Part shown: positions 583-26,902 of the stretch, in pieces | Position numbering within the stretch: position 1 is the stretch's first letter | Layout of the letters: every line of letters starts with the position of its first letter | IMG/VR virus record: IMGVR_UViG_3300027747_000206 | Location: 1 to 50,602 of that record | Length of the DNA: 50,602 nt | Direction: 5' to 3' (one strand) | Source: a virus | Taxonomy: Duplodnaviria; Caudoviricetes | The notes under the pieces: generated by a model | The model's input: the letters and a program-made list of their open reading frames with translations, nothing else | Databases searched by the model: none | What the model was told of the DNA's origin: nothing | Translations under genes and position numbers: made by a program

Positions 583-1497
583 TTATTTGTACTGTGTTAA
601 TGAAGCTAAAACAGAATATGTTGCACTTGCAGTCTTGATAACGGCAAACCTATAAACATCAAATCCTGACGCATTACCCGCAGTAGGCGCACCACCAATC
701 CACTTAGGCGTGACTGATGTTCCATCTATTGTGACTGCGCTGTTGTAATAAGCCGTAGTGCTTTGAGTTGTGACTAAAGTAAACGTGACTGATTGGCCTG
801 TAGTCAATGCCGTATTTAATGACGTTCCGCTAGAAAACGCAATATTAAGCGTCCAGTTGTTCGCTGCATTAGATGTGTAATACTGAACTGATCCGCTTTG
901 AACATAGTAATTAGTTGTTGAAGATGGGGCAGAAGCTACCACATTGACAGTTTCAGCAGAGTCGAGCAACACCGTACCAAATATGCTTGACGTACCGTTA
1001 AATGTTTGTGTGCCCGTCCAAGTATTGTTGGCGGATAAAGAAACGCCAGCAGTAGGAGCTACCCAAGAAGCTGTAGTTCCATTCGATGTCAGAATGTATG
1101 TGTTAGCACCTATTGCCAATCTTGTTGCGCTATTAGTTCCATTACCAAGAATCAAATCACCTGTTGTGGTGATAGGAGACAAAGCATTAAAAGCCGCAGA
1201 TGCTGTTGTCTGTCCTGTGCCACCATTTGCAATAGCTAATGTTCCAGCAAGCGTTACTGCTCCAGTTGTTGCTGTGTTAGGGGTTAAACCAGTTGTTCCT
1301 GCACTAAATGATGAAACATTTATGTTGCCTGCTTTTGATGCAATAGTTTGTACAACTCCACCACTATCCTTATAGAACAATTTGCCATCAGCGTAGTTAA
1401 TTGCTAACTCACCCGATGCTAAATTAGCCGCTAAAGGTACATTTGTGGTCGTGCCACTGTTGTACGTTATGATTGGTGTATAGCCTGACTGTGCCAT
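583..1497 (-). CDS. Tail fibre-associated protein
   Basis: Thr/Gly/Ala-rich. N-terminal LASGELAINYADGKLFYKD motif and GTLAIANGGTG repeat typical of phage fibres. Confidence 0.75.
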   Translation of the reverse strand: MAQSGYTPIITYNSGTTTNVPLAANLASGELAINYADGKLFYKDSGGVVQTIASKAGNINVSSFSAGTTGLTPNTATTGAVTLAGTLAIANGGTGQTTASAAFNALSPITTTGDLILGNGTNSATRLAIGANTYILTSNGTTASWVAPTAGVSLSANNTWTGTQTFNGTSSIFGTVLLDSAETVNVVASAPSSTTNYYVQSGSVQYYTSNAANNWTLNIAFSSGTSLNTALTTGQSVTFTLVTTQSTTAYYNSAVTIDGTSVTPKWIGGAPTAGNASGFDVYRFAVIKTASATYSVLASLTQYK

Positions 1498-5329: not shown

Positions 5330-5581
5330 TTACCAACCAGAACAGTTCCAACGCTTGAGTGATGCTTTTGCTCTTGGAGCATCTCCCTTTGCGTGAGCAA
5401 CTACCCCTGACATCCTTGCACAAAACGAATCTTTCCTAGCACCACCCTGAGGTTGTGGAGCTTTTAAATGGCTTCCAGTCTCTCTGTTGTACTTAGCCCT
5501 ACCTTTGGCTGTTAAACCTGCTCCCTTGCTTACAGGAAGTTTCTCGCCACGACCTATTGCTAATGAAGGATTCTTTGCCAT
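5330..5581 (-). CDS. Small basic phage protein (DUF6321-like)
   Basis: GLTAKGRAKYN...LKAP...RKDSFCARM...LKRWNC. Start placed at ATG 5581, overlapping the upstream stop (TAATG). Confidence 0.7.
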   Translation of the reverse strand: MAKNPSLAIGRGEKLPVSKGAGLTAKGRAKYNRETGSHLKAPQPQGGARKDSFCARMSGVVAHAKGDAPRAKASLKRWNCSGW

Positions 5582-6345: not shown

Positions 6346-7572
6346 TTAACACTTAATACTACCACCACGCTTTTTAGCAGGTGTTACAGTTACCGATTCT
6401 TTACTCTTGGTAACACTGCCTGCAGGCTTGGCTTCATTCATACCCATCAGATTTTTAGCTCCTTGGTATATCTTTGAAGGAATACTTCTAATGTACTTAG
6501 CAGTATCCATATCTTCGTTGTATACACCTTGGAGTGTCTTGTCAAAAGCACCTTTAGATAAGTCATTTACTGGAGGCTTTGAAACAGCACTGCCTTCTTC
6601 ACCACTAAACTTCATGACCTTACCACCCTTTTTAAAGGTGCCAGATAATTGGTTTATGTGAACTGGCTTAGATGCAGGCTTTTGTCCTTGTGGCATTGCC
6701 ACGGCATGACCAGTGCGATTAACACTGCCCCCCGTGGCGAAGTGCTTTTTTAATGCACCACCTTTCTTGTAACCACCACCATTTGACTCTTTAACAGCAC
6801 CAGTTGTTGTATTGGTCACGCCCTTAGGAGTTCCAACAACATTGTCAACAGCGTACTTGTTTACGTTACCACTTATGGCATATTTGGCTTTTCCACCCTT
6901 TTTAAAACCACCTGCGTTGGACATTCTTACGCCACCAGTACCATTAGCATTGTCAGGCTTGGCTTGATGAACCAAAGTTGTGTCGTAATCACCAGAAGAA
7001 GTCTCTGAGTTAATAGATCCACCCTTCTTGTAACCACCTCCATTGCCTTTCTTAACAGAACCAGTGCCATGAGCACTGTCTTTCTTGGAAGTATCCATTT
7101 TAGTTTTTTCGTAAGGCTTTAAATTGCCTTTCATGGTAGTTTTGGTTTCATCAGCATCAATCATCTCACCTGATGCTTGTCCACCTGACTTGAGACCCTT
7201 ATGAGCTTTACTAGCCTTCATGGATTCATGGTGCTTGAGTTCTTTCTCAATCTTGCCCATTTCTTTCATTTCAGCTTTGTGCTCTTTTGGTGACTCCATT
7301 TCTCCACCTTTTTTCATCACAGGTGTAGGCATAGCAGTAGGCATGGCTGTCATAGCCCTACGTCTTATAGCCATTGGAGGCTTTTTAGGAGCCATAGCCA
7401 TCATAGCAGGAGGCATTCCACGAGCCATCATTGGCCCTGCCATACCACCATCCATCATCTTGTGACCATGCTCAGACTTTTTCTTCATGGAAACATGACC
7501 ACCTTTTTTGAGCTTCAGTTCAACTGAAGGCTCAGTGGTCTCCATCTTCACCATTGGTTTAAATTGTCCCAT
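6346..7572 (-). CDS. Lys-rich low-complexity protein with ~10 xxxGG motifs, probable internal head protein
   Basis: Repeated LKKGG/MKKGG/YKKGG/FKKGG/FATGG; GGAGG RBS; position after the capsid genes. Confidence 0.75.
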   Translation of the reverse strand: MGQFKPMVKMETTEPSVELKLKKGGHVSMKKKSEHGHKMMDGGMAGPMMARGMPPAMMAMAPKKPPMAIRRRAMTAMPTAMPTPVMKKGGEMESPKEHKAEMKEMGKIEKELKHHESMKASKAHKGLKSGGQASGEMIDADETKTTMKGNLKPYEKTKMDTSKKDSAHGTGSVKKGNGGGYKKGGSINSETSSGDYDTTLVHQAKPDNANGTGGVRMSNAGGFKKGGKAKYAISGNVNKYAVDNVVGTPKGVTNTTTGAVKESNGGGYKKGGALKKHFATGGSVNRTGHAVAMPQGQKPASKPVHINQLSGTFKKGGKVMKFSGEEGSAVSKPPVNDLSKGAFDKTLQGVYNEDMDTAKYIRSIPSKIYQGAKNLMGMNEAKPAGSVTKSKESVTVTPAKKRGGSIKC

Positions 7573-25185: not shown

Positions 25186-25924
25186 TTTTTTCTCCTATAA
25201 GTCCACGAGTTAAACCAGATAGAACTTTTTTACTAGCTTGTGCCCTTTTAGACAATCCAGAGTCTTGCTCCTGAAGGTTCTTTTCGTACCAAGCAGTCTT
25301 GAAAGATGCCCAGTTTGACAGACAACAATATTGAACTCCTTGTTGGTCAGACAAGTTGCATTTTCGGAACTCGTTTTGTATTTGCTCCCAAGAAGTTTCG
25401 GTCATCGGAAGTTTTTTGGATTTCCGTATTTGTAACCAATCAGACCAAACTTGGTTATCCACATTTGGTGGACAAGCAACGCTAGTTGCTTTCTCTCTAT
25501 CTGGTTTATGGTTTATGGTTATTGGTTTATGGTTATTGGTTGGTTGAACGTCCGTTGAACGCTCGTTAAACGTCTGTTGAACATCAGTAGTACGTTTGTT
25601 GGCTCTCTGTTGAGCAGATGCTCGACCTGCCCTAGATGCTTGCTCCTTTTTGCCATGATATTCCTCAATTTCCTTATCAGCACGATGGTTAATATACCCA
25701 TCTTCTGTAGACACAAAAAACTCTTCGAGTATTGAAAGCACTTCTTGCTCGTGTTCACGCAAGCCTATCTGACGAGCAATTTCTCGCTGTTTGATGGGTT
25801 CCTCGTGAAGATAATAATGATCCAAAAGCCTGCGATAAGCAAGATCTTCTATTGGGGTCAAATGGTGCGTGTGTGACTTATAGTCACCTATGTGAAAATT
25901 AAAATAATGCATACCTGCTTTCAT
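25163..25924 (-). CDS. Replication initiator, YdaU/DUF1376 family
   Basis: MHYFNFHIGDYKSHTHHL...AYRRLLDHYY...R.D.EI; contains internal iterons. Confidence 0.85.
   Translation of the reverse strand: MKAGMHYFNFHIGDYKSHTHHLTPIEDLAYRRLLDHYYLHEEPIKQREIARQIGLREHEQEVLSILEEFFVSTEDGYINHRADKEIEEYHGKKEQASRAGRASAQQRANKRTTDVQQTFNERSTDVQPTNNHKPITINHKPDREKATSVACPPNVDNQVWSDWLQIRKSKKLPMTETSWEQIQNEFRKCNLSDQQGVQYCCLSNWASFKTAWYEKNLQEQDSGLSKRAQASKKVLSGLTRGLIGEKNVTLLGT
25503..25586. repeat. Probable replication origin: four 11-bp iterons plus 7-bp repeats
   Basis: gttgaacgtcc/gttgaacgctc/gttaaacgtct/gttgaacatca at 25543-25586, next to ggtttat/ggttatt x5. Confidence 0.7.
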
Positions 25925-25943
25925 CGGTCGCTTTCACTGAAAG

Positions 25944-26000
25944 AAACAATGGAAGGACGGTGAAAGAATCGTCTTTTCGGGAGCTACCCTATCCATGTTT
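25944..26000 (-). ncRNA. Structured leader element upstream of the initiator
   Basis: Stem ATGGA/TCCAT encloses AGGGTAGCTCCCGAAAA and hairpin GACG-ATTCTTTCAC-CGTC. Confidence 0.5.
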
Positions 26001-26008
26001 TCAATATC

Positions 26009-26212
26009 TTACATTAAAAAAATGTCTGGTCTCAAATCTTTTTTAGTGACTAACCCTATGGTTGCCTCTTCAATCTTTTTTGCAAGTTTAGGGCTTGGTT
26101 GCTTACGCCCATGAATAATTAAACTCAACCAAGTTGCAGTGATGCCTAAATACTTTGACATTTCACTGATGGCTCCTTTAGGTTCTTCTTTGAAATATTC
26201 TTTTAAATTCAT
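26009..26212 (-). CDS. Cro/YdaS-like HTH regulator
   Basis: Start MNLKEYF at 26212; HTH, then PSPKLAKKIEEAT.G.VT..DLRPD. Confidence 0.85.
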   Translation of the reverse strand: MNLKEYFKEEPKGAISEMSKYLGITATWLSLIIHGRKQPSPKLAKKIEEATIGLVTKKDLRPDIFLM

Positions 26213-26229
26213 TCTTTTATCCTTGTTAA

Positions 26230-26468
26230 TTGTTGGCGCTCCCATAGAGCAGGGTAGGGGGAACAACACTCTTTAATATCTTCTCCCACGGAGCTAAACC
26301 GCTTCGCCAACACGGATGGGGACTGATCCGTCAAGATAGCATCACAAGTACGATTAACGGTTCGCCCTGATTTGCCCAATCCCCATGCGTGTTGGTTGTT
26401 GGCTCCCATAAAGCAGGGTTAGGTACACCTCTTTCGAGACCTTCGGAGCTAAACCAATTTACCAACAA
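26230..26468 (-). ncRNA. Tandem array of three structured RNA cassettes in the early leader
   Basis: Two copies of GGTTTAGCTCCG-[hairpin]-ACCCTGCTYTATGGGAGC, each closed by TGTTGG/CCAACA, flank a third long stem. Confidence 0.65.
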
Positions 26469-26472
26469 ACAG

Positions 26473-26495
26473 ATCATACCATAACTTATAGTTAA
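26473..26495 (-). promoter_or_regulatory. Leftward early promoter (extended -10) with operator-like palindrome
   Basis: TGgTATGAT; ATAAC-N5-GTTAA at 26481-26495. Confidence 0.6.
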
Positions 26496-26525
26496 AAATA
26501 ACCATGTAATTGAATCAAGTATTAC

Positions 26526-26554
26526 TTAACTTTAAATTAAGATCATGCTAAGAT
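26526..26554 (+). promoter_or_regulatory. Rightward early promoter with operator-like palindrome
   Basis: TTAACT-17 bp-TAAGAT with extended TG; TTAAC-N5-ATTAA at 26526-26540. Confidence 0.6.
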
Positions 26555-26588
26555 GTGTGTACTGCATAAGCAGGTTATTGGAGCACAC

Positions 26589-26807
26589 ATGGAAAAAGTA
26601 CCTTGTTATACAACTAAGTCAGGACTCAAGATTGGGTCTTACTATCAACTAAAACCTTGTCCTCTCAATAGAGATGAAGAGCGTATCCAAGCAATTTTAC
26701 TAGGCATAGAACACGACTGGTCACCAAGAAGGACTGGTTGGTTTAGCTTGTATTGCGTTGCAGTCATGATTTTTGTCACTGTCTTAATGTCATGGGAAAA
26801 AACATGA
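26589..26807 (+). CDS. Small protein with C-terminal TM segment
   Basis: Start MEKVPCYTTKSGLKIG with GGAG RBS. Confidence 0.65.
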   Translation: MEKVPCYTTKSGLKIGSYYQLKPCPLNRDEERIQAILLGIEHDWSPRRTGWFSLYCVAVMIFVTVLMSWEKT

Positions 26808-26902
26808 ACAAACACCAACTTGTAGAAAAAGTAAGCAGGGTTGTCTTTCTTTTGGCAATCATTGTTTTAACATTTGATTTTTTAATTTGGAGACCACATT
26901 GA
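26804..26902 (+). CDS. Small membrane protein (32 aa)
   Basis: Hand-translated MNKHQLVEKVSRVVFLLAIIVLTFDFLIWRPH; ATGA overlap. Confidence 0.55.
   Translation: MNKHQLVEKVSRVVFLLAIIVLTFDFLIWRPH

Follow-up and report, generated by a model that had tools for sequence, protein, structure and literature searches.

What is the array of structured RNA that lies between the divergent control region and the cro-like gene of this phage, and what could such an array do there? The stretch of DNA analysed (the window) is an entire IMG/VR virus record of 50,602 bp, with an estimated completeness of about 90%. The array region occupies positions 26229-26481 (minus strand), with the control region on one side and the cro-like gene on the other. 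Read from the promoter along the minus strand, the order is a -10-like element, three cassettes (A, B and C), an AAGGA Shine-Dalgarno sequence and an ATG at 26212. A first-pass annotation had described these cassettes as a tandem array with a constant scaffold and a variable insert, and had suggested that they might serve as antisense guides, decoys or ribozyme-like units. The features of the region are as follows.

26473..26481, minus strand: putative extended -10 element (TGgTATGAT), read by eye; 5-6 nt separate its end from the first paired base of A
26395..26468, minus strand: cassette A, family copy 1 (covariance model R1, 68.3 bits, E 2.3e-17, filters off)
26307..26395, minus strand: cassette B, conserved accessory hairpin (minimum free energy -39.3 kcal/mol, z -4.66)
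26229..26313, minus strand: cassette C, family copy 2 (covariance model R1, 101.8 bits, E 5.6e-27, filters off)
26009..26212, minus strand: Cro-like helix-turn-helix gene, 67 aa (phrog_35 'transcriptional repressor', E 2e-12), the first gene after the array
25931..25999, minus strand: int-alpA RNA (Rfam RF02996, 39.3 bits against a gathering score of 35.8)

Two copies of one RNA domain in the early leader

The annotation was right that the early leader holds a tandem array of structured RNA units: the 261-nt leader folds at -87 kcal/mol (z -2.93), and none of 200 shuffled versions folds as well. One self-contained RNA domain of 75-90 nt (the unit), which lies outside Rfam 15, is present twice in tandem, as cassettes A and C. 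The covariance model, run with filters off, recovers these two copies and no other in the 50.6-kb window (101.8 and 68.3 bits), the next best match scoring 10.2 bits. As the annotation had noticed, the two share a UGUUGG/CCAACA closing stem; they also share the blocks GGUUUAGCUCCG and ACCCUGCUYUAUGGGAGC. In C, the closing helix P1 pairs 26312-26305 with 26238-26231, P2 pairs 26302-26299 with 26291-26288 around the loop L2 (UUUAGCU, 26298-26292), the P3 arm takes up 26287-26256, and P4 pairs 26254-26252 with 26243-26241 around the loop L4 (UGCUCUAU, 26251-26244). Cassette A has its P1 at 26467-26462 with 26402-26397 and a short P3 with a GAAA cap. The scaffold is indeed constant apart from a single variable arm, P3, and what had been taken for different hairpins in A and C is this one homologous arm, shortened in A.

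The Shine-Dalgarno sequence of the cro-like gene stands about 10 nt past P1 of C. Between this gene and a primosomal/replication gene lies the int-alpA RNA, a branched stem with a U-rich run after it, which is found in matching position in two related loci (L005 and L170; loci are given by number where they must be told apart). Nearly all large open reading frames of the window are on the strand of the array and behind its putative promoter. A transcription start had been predicted near 26466; it is not confirmed, since the only sign of it is the extended -10 read by eye, which a consensus promoter scan did not list and whose -35 is poor. The record (about 90% complete) has no recognisable integrase or S24-type repressor domain, which agrees with the earlier description of a phage without a CI repressor, but the unit is specific neither to repressor-less phages nor to cro leaders. 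We also considered the UG27 reverse-transcriptase ncRNA array, which has a reverse transcriptase gene beside it, as set out in the available text of bioRxiv 10.64898/2026.09.22.753630, and rejected it on finding no RVT_1 match in the whole record.

Could the conserved blocks be coding? In the window the AUG of L4 is in frame with the cro-like gene, and elsewhere with terL or the gene of L207; in L170 it is out of frame. Because these in-frame AUGs are inconsistent and P4 covaries through the would-be codons, a coding feature was rejected, and a relative without the unit shows that TerL starts after P1. The 66-aa open reading frame that runs through A, B and C is treated as a by-product of RNA conservation, and the array as non-coding.

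A covarying junction and its competitor hairpin

The unit is modelled from covariation as a four-way junction, with its arms ordered and sized as in a tRNA cloverleaf. Covariance analysis, which the annotation had suggested, gives this model a clear signal: across 63 diverse members 96.6% of the aligned cells pair, and 17 of the 18 pairs change on both sides. None of 500 shuffles reaches this level, partners slid by 1-3 columns pair in at most 47.7% of cells, and a 40-sequence set gives the same covariation picture. The alignments were fitted to the model, which favours structure, and the fold itself is taken from covariation in these alignments, as single-sequence energy minimisation often misses P2 and P4; we nevertheless take the signal to be real because the slid controls are low and the pair types are many. 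The presence of G-U pairs fixes the functional strand, which is the strand that the annotation had chosen.

P1 has 7-8 bp in the window and up to 20 bp elsewhere (10-20 bp in L304, L305, L306, L310 and L301, lengths that bacterial copies reach), and reads GUUGGCG/CGCCAAC in the window and GGGCGGG/CCCGCCC in other members. The junction is AAA after P1 and AG after P4. P2, at the position of the D-arm, has 4 bp and a 7-nt loop, NUUAGCN; its stem is CGG/CCG, with the variants AGG/CCU, GAGU/ACUU and CAGGU/ACCUG. P3 is the variable arm, at the position of the anticodon arm, and comes in a few conserved types, whose 3' side mostly contains AGAGUGUUGUUC and otherwise UUCAAUUGCG; A has a trimmed form of the first type that retains AAAGAG-GUGU. 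The GUGUUG of P3 might be thought a mimic of the P1 5' strand, but this was ruled out, as it persists where P1 is GGGCGGG. P4, at the position of the T-arm, has 3 bp and an 8-nt loop, UGCUUNAU; it occurs as CCC/GGG, UCC/GGA, CGC/GCG, CAC/GUG and CUC/GAG, and its loop-closing C-G pair is present in 63 of 63 members. The covariation of P4 to GCG, GGA, GUG and GAG rules out GGGAG as a general Shine-Dalgarno sequence.

Conservation, which includes about 25 near-invariant bases, is concentrated in both outer loops and the junction. Resemblances of L4 to boxA and of L2 to ops were dropped as too weak. The AGC of L2 can pair with the GCU of L4 in 40 of 40 sequences, including four with C-to-U changes that retain a wobble pair, and the two loops may meet in an elbow contact; this contact is unproven because both segments hardly vary. 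A pseudoknot of GCUCC/GGAGC with GGU/ACC, drawn in the annotation, fails on the same set of 40 members: its pairing is 79.2% against 78.5% in shuffles, the central U-A is broken in 31 of 40, and the end pair of GGU/ACC is broken in 26 of 40. The blocks in question belong instead to the P2 stem (GG/CC) and to P4 (CCC/GGG), both of which covary. What survives of the earlier description is its shared blocks, its stems and the place of its B hairpin; its pseudoknot and its separate hairpins do not, and its transcription start is unconfirmed.

Cassette B is the long stem that had been described, formed by a basal helix CCAACACG/CGUGUUGG and a lower helix AUGGGGAUUG/CAGUCCCCAU, and none of 200 shuffles matches its fold. 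A corresponding hairpin stands 5' of the unit in the window, L005, L004, L207, L182, L166, L160, L174, L170 and the bacterial locus L306. Over eight lineages its pairing reaches 90.9% of cells, against at most 50.3% in slid controls, and both sides have changed in 5 of 18 pairs; in L170, for example, AUGGGG/CCCCAU has become GUAGAG/CUCUAC. The 3' arm of B, CGUGUUGG, is at the same time the 5' arm of the closing helix of C, so that B and P1 are mutually exclusive, and the competition that the annotation had seen in one array recurs as a strand overlap in all eight of the diverged pairs of B and unit that were aligned. We regard this conserved competition between B and P1 as the most mechanistically suggestive feature found.

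Distribution and placement of the unit

How widespread is the unit? A first pattern, consisting of the two conserved blocks, matched 8 viral contigs and no bacterial genome. The covariance model R1, built on the first 11 copies and run on 91 viral loci recovered with a 3' 16-mer, matched 58 times at E <= 4e-14, in 56 of 92 sources, with about a dozen weaker, divergent matches besides. A scan with the 5' half returned 101 stretches, and among the matches listed 64 of 68 new loci fit the family model. The family was found in 55 and then in 64 further viral contigs, over 120 in all, and a specific 24-base pattern is present in at least 120 metagenomic contigs. The same pattern, searched in bacteria with one genome per species, matches a single contig, from Achromobacter dolens. 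A second model, R2, applied to the genomes around A. dolens, finds the unit in 3 of 151 genomes at the level of the order, 5 of 151 at that of the family and 1 of 151 at that of the class, each count including the starting A. dolens genome; a few Burkholderiaceae genomes carry the unit. The 16-mer gave 120 matches in bacterial genomes, of which 100 were scored, and the 23 weak ones listed (at most 20.2 bits) were read as chance. There is no true blastn match in 50,697 deposited phage genomes, and a search for prophages with the Cro protein gave one locus, which is irrelevant.

The annotation's expectation of novelty with respect to Rfam held: in Rfam 15 no family matches the A, B or C region (cmscan of 25800-26900, even at E <= 10), and at gathering and E-value thresholds the window and 13-14 related loci yield int-alpA only. 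We have here a large, sequence-diverse family with unusually clean covariation and no Rfam 15 match. A literature search did not find the family described. The available text of Fremin et al. 2023 (PMC10690425) speaks of a catalogue of phage RNA candidates without names, about 10,000 in number, of which 14 lie upstream of a large terminase gene; the motif may already be included there. The family is new to Rfam 15, and in kind it belongs with structured leader and intercistronic RNAs of phages that have tRNA-like features; there is a real chance that it is something further from that known kind.

In all its contexts the unit lies on the sense strand of the neighbouring genes. It lies in the leader of a cro-like gene in the window, L005, L170 and L264, and just past such a gene in L304. 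In a large group of phages it sits exactly between terS and terL, where the terS frame stops at the UAG of L2, the terL start follows directly after P1, and the GGGAG of P4/J41 is 8 nt before the likely terL start. Promoter-proximal units also stand ahead of two other, unrelated packaging operons, so that three unrelated terminase types are represented in total. These terminase contexts had prompted us to consider a phi29 pRNA-like packaging RNA, an idea that was dropped because the copies of the window lie far from terL. Other units are found before an SNF2 helicase gene, between ordinary cistrons (L283 and L310) and in prophage-like loci of bacterial genomes. In Achromobacter dolens two tandem copies follow a lipoprotein open reading frame and face a lysis cassette, with a reverse-oriented terminator next and no same-strand gene behind them; tandem copies are seen in the window and in L301. 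Where a promoter can be recognised, it is close: 5-7 nt separate the end of the -10 element from the first paired base in L003 (where the promoter scores 12/12) and L002, and the spacing read by eye in the window, L173, L192, L006 and L170 is similar. The unit occupies control points of the phage: it stands where early transcripts begin and where packaging operons are entered.

The unit is a movable module. In MW202674, whose TerL is 72.8% identical to that of the unit-bearing relative, the stop of terS and the start of terL overlap and the unit is absent; in the alignment the unit appears as an insertion whose limits are exactly the two P1 strands. Related phages carry it at other sites, as in L283, where it lies between two cistrons and the upstream frame stops 3 nt before P1. 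We propose that it is a movable module of phages with Burkholderiaceae-type hosts.

What the unit may do

Any account of function has to explain a movable domain, a tRNA-like layout whose conserved bases cluster at the places of a tRNA elbow and core, placement at 5' ends and between cistrons, a conserved competitor for P1 on its upstream side, and restriction to phages of one host family. Our preferred explanation, held tentatively, is that the unit works in cis, as a tRNA-like module by which RNA ends are defined or stabilised. At a promoter, the closing helix P1 would close off the 5' end of the transcript, beginning with its very first base. For a unit inside an operon or behind B, the end would be made by a host enzyme that recognises the shape of a tRNA and cuts where the 5' strand of P1 begins. 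In both situations the phage RNA downstream would begin with a base-paired, nuclease-resistant end, and the competition between B and P1 would keep the unit from folding until B had been opened or cleaved. The analysis shows the family, its fold, B, the insertion as a module and the positions; the host factor, the cutting and the stabilisation are inferred. RNase P is a candidate for the cutting enzyme because bacterial RNase P cuts phage RNAs that are not tRNAs, namely P1/P7 C4, P4 CI and phi80 M3 RNA (available text of PMC5499578).

The likeness to tRNA is one of layout. The closing helix of the unit has 7-8 bp and is followed by an arm of 4 bp that carries a 7-nt loop, by the variable arm and by a short arm whose loop-closing pair is invariant; the four helices follow the cloverleaf order (with 17 of 18 pairs covarying), and conservation lies in the outer loops and junction, with a possible loop-loop elbow. 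In contrast to tRNA, the unit lacks the consensus of the T-loop and of the D-loop, the signature of an anticodon loop and a CCA end; its P4 has 3 bp and its P1 up to 20 bp. A true tRNA or tmRNA was rejected: ARAGORN finds none in the window and none in 29 related loci, and no Rfam tRNA model matches at E <= 10. These mismatches, together with that of the C4 model, also count against the reading in terms of RNA ends, as does the absence of a conserved RCCA-like tail after P1. RNase P measures 12 bp, and the P1 helices of 10-20 bp noted above do not fit this rule. For sealing a 5' end a plain hairpin would do, so the invariance of the loops points to a partner more specific than the proposed mechanism needs. 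Finally, the A. dolens copies have no same-strand gene downstream, and the promoter of the window was missed by the scan.

A host partner of another kind would be RNA polymerase. In the available text of PMC9378689, the put RNAs of phage HK022 consist of two stem-loops in a V shape, and putL is base-paired from nt 3 of the PL transcript. By analogy, the unit could be an RNA-only processive antiterminator, whose nascent fold binds the host RNA polymerase and gives read-through in early and packaging operons; we consider this rather unlikely. HK022 put itself binds the zinc-binding domain of the polymerase beta' subunit and suppresses termination. The parallels are considerable: putL and putR are cis RNAs of about 70 nt, directly behind an early promoter or after cro, that pair almost from the first transcribed nucleotide and need no phage protein, and the unit takes the same positions on the sense strand behind the early promoter (window, L005, L170 and L264) or after cro (L304), besides its promoter-proximal place ahead of terS/terL/portal operons. 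There is material downstream on which an antiterminator might act, such as int-alpA with its U-run after cro, a terminator with 7 GC pairs about 95 nt downstream in L305, and a hairpin with a U-run before the helicase gene of L003, which was seen by eye, although the scan did not find it. With nearly all genes of the window on one strand behind the putative promoter, and with loops that are invariant in unrelated phages of one host family, a contact with a conserved host surface would fit. Against this, put is a V-shaped pair with a short triplex and no closing helix, whereas the unit is a closed four-way junction with other conserved bases (the two were compared by description); the window has one strong same-strand terminator only in 19.5 kb; and the A. 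dolens copies have no operon downstream. The upstream frame stops inside L2 in the terS-terL phages and 3 nt before P1 in L283, and ribosomes that terminate there would unfold P1, which conflicts with an RNA that needs to stay on the polymerase. If the junction and loops instead bound a small molecule or protein, the unit would be an aptamer or switch that chooses between P1 and B or sequesters its ligand and in this way tunes the expression of the genes that follow, which seems unlikely to us. A purine riboswitch has a variable closing P1, two hairpin loops that may kiss and a conserved junction, and the unit resembles it in its P1 of variable length, its two hairpins with conserved loops of 7-8 nt, its junction and its possible loop-loop contact, with an arm that looks dispensable as in small riboswitches. 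The exclusive pairing of B and P1, kept in eight lineages with compensatory changes, the tandem copies in the window and L301, and the GGGAG close to the likely terL start would suit such a switch. Riboswitch classes, though, accompany genes tied to their ligand, and the genes downstream of the unit have no common function and no metabolic link. The unit has an extra variable arm and matches no known riboswitch class of Rfam in the window or related loci. Its competitor B is upstream and not in a downstream expression platform, none of which was found, no terminator or Shine-Dalgarno-sequestering helix is consistently linked to P1, the GGGAG is not conserved (GCGAC, GGAAG and GUGAA occur), and P1 helices of 12-20 bp would not switch.

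Placement of the unit does not depend on the gene next to it, and close relatives differ in its presence and position, which suits an RNA acting in trans (a decoy, sponge or small RNA, for instance against host defence) that would be of use at any transcribed site and would for that reason be scattered as a moron-like module. A strong promoter is often found at the first base of the unit, sometimes with a second promoter after it (L160, 11/12), copies may be in tandem, the A. dolens copies lie past the lipoprotein gene in an accessory region with no gene downstream, and a host nuclease or enzyme might take the tRNA-like shape for a tRNA. As a mimic of an anticodon loop L2 would be poor, since it has C in place of the purine that such a loop carries at position 37; moreover no 3' terminator or processing signal consistently delimits a small RNA, no complementary target of L4 or of the P3 loop of C was found in the window, and intercistronic copies overlap coding ends, which makes a trans role quite unlikely. 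Gene independence is equally typical of the self-cleaving ribozymes of phage metagenomes (hammerhead, twister, twister-sister, pistol and hatchet), which the unit resembles in its size and in its distribution over metagenomic phages, intergenic, on the sense strand and sometimes in tandem. Its compact fold combines about 25 near-invariant bases with stems that vary and perhaps a tertiary contact between loops, and twister-sister can be a four-way junction. A new class of ribozyme is still decidedly unlikely: the conserved core bases differ from those of the known classes, no Rfam ribozyme model matches even at E <= 10, 146 kb of related loci contain no known ribozyme near the unit, the conserved bases are mostly in hairpin loops and not in the junction or internal loops, and copies flush with the transcription start would have no upstream part to shed. 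The annotation drew its analogy with P1 C4 and P4 CI, immunity RNAs that are processed from early leaders; on this reading the units would be antisense or immunity RNAs, guided by their variable inserts to targets in phage or host. The unit is like these small phage RNAs in lying in an early leader and in having a closed stem with internal hairpins, and the record has no detected integrase or S24 repressor. C4, however, has two hairpins on a stem and not a four-way junction, and its Rfam model (RF01695) has no match at E <= 10 in 25800-26900 nor at its gathering score in the window and 13 related loci. The unit also occurs far from immunity regions. Its conserved loops are identical in unrelated phages, and P3 comes in a few conserved types and not as phage-specific guides. 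A search of the window for complements of L4 and of the P3 loop of C, with up to 3 mismatches, found nothing beyond chance: the perfect complements are the opposite strand of the units themselves, and the weaker ones number 9 against 6.5 expected and 1, a self-match, against 0.07. With no antisense targets found for these two loops, an immunity RNA of this type is not supported, and we hold it to be very improbable.

The preferred reading in terms of RNA ends stands beside a broader one, which we give a sizeable though less than even chance: that the unit is an active RNA of an undescribed class (an RNA-only antiterminator unrelated to put, a new self-cleaving ribozyme, or a phage-specific aptamer or sponge that takes up a host signal), carried from one phage genome to another as a module of 75-90 nt with its closing helix as the boundary, for which B would act as a folding gate. 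Any of these mechanisms would add an RNA tool that Burkholderiaceae phages use on a conserved host machine. The unit is short and well defined, and the competition between B and P1 offers a ready experimental handle on it.

Reading frames across and opposite the array

Two open reading frames of the window lie within or beside the array.

Window 26209-26409, minus strand: 66-aa frame across the array
Window 26553-26807, plus strand: first leftward frame, divergent from the array

The 66-aa frame starts at an AUG within loop L4 of cassette A, runs on through the accessory hairpin (B) and the second unit copy (C), and stops at a TGA overlapping the cro ATG (ATGA); cro is itself in frame with the AUG of cassette C's own L4. 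The related locus L170 has a comparable 41-aa frame, with its stop adjoining its cro ATG. We regard these frames as probable by-products of RNA conservation, with a leader peptide as a possible alternative. The product of the divergent frame, kept at the equivalent position in L264 and L170, is a small protein whose tail is hydrophobic; it is not a CI-like repressor.

The int-alpA RNA and variant units

The phage groups that carry the unit repeatedly carry the Rfam int-alpA RNA as well, and some loci hold a unit-like element at the position of cassette A.

Window 25931-25999, minus strand: int-alpA RNA (Rfam match)
L005 509-576: int-alpA RNA
L170 7694-7761: int-alpA RNA
L208 8796-8862: int-alpA RNA
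L133 4774-4839: int-alpA RNA
L004 about 5413-5476, plus strand: unit-like element
L170 about 7160-7243, plus strand: unit-like element

In three of these groups the int-alpA RNA lies directly 3' of the cro-like gene, has a U-rich run at its end and resembles a branched terminator separating cro from the replication genes. The two unit-like elements keep the closing helix of the unit (GGUUGG.../...CCAACC) around a different or degenerate interior, which in L170 contains UUAAGCU and GAUGGAGCG. Such elements could represent either a sister motif or copies of the unit that have decayed.

Neighbouring elements in related loci

L002 9212-9337 (also in L004, L006, L008 and L301): GC-rich hairpin with preceding A-run
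L174 3330-3560, minus strand: B-like hairpin apex and upstream region
L160 1440-1602, minus strand: promoter, structured RNA and hairpin after the unit
L306 (Burkholderiaceae genome) about 1301-1434, minus strand: B and unit pair

The A-run and GC-rich hairpin abut the unit's 3' end in all five loci, and the hairpin is a terminator serving the opposite strand. About 90 nt from it in L002 lies a promoter on the minus strand, which could give a short antisense transcript terminating there. T-arm-like hairpins (GGUUCGAUUCC, GGGGAUUCGACCCC) occur in L174 within the apical portion of the B-like hairpin and upstream of it; ARAGORN called no tRNA or tmRNA. Directly 3' of the L160 unit, a promoter matching 11 of 12 consensus positions is followed by a structured RNA of about 110 nt and then a long hairpin and U-run; the whole resembles another small RNA gene. 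Downstream of the L306 pair, a gene resembling a moron-type accessory gene encodes a small peptide that is Cys-rich and begins with a signal-like segment.
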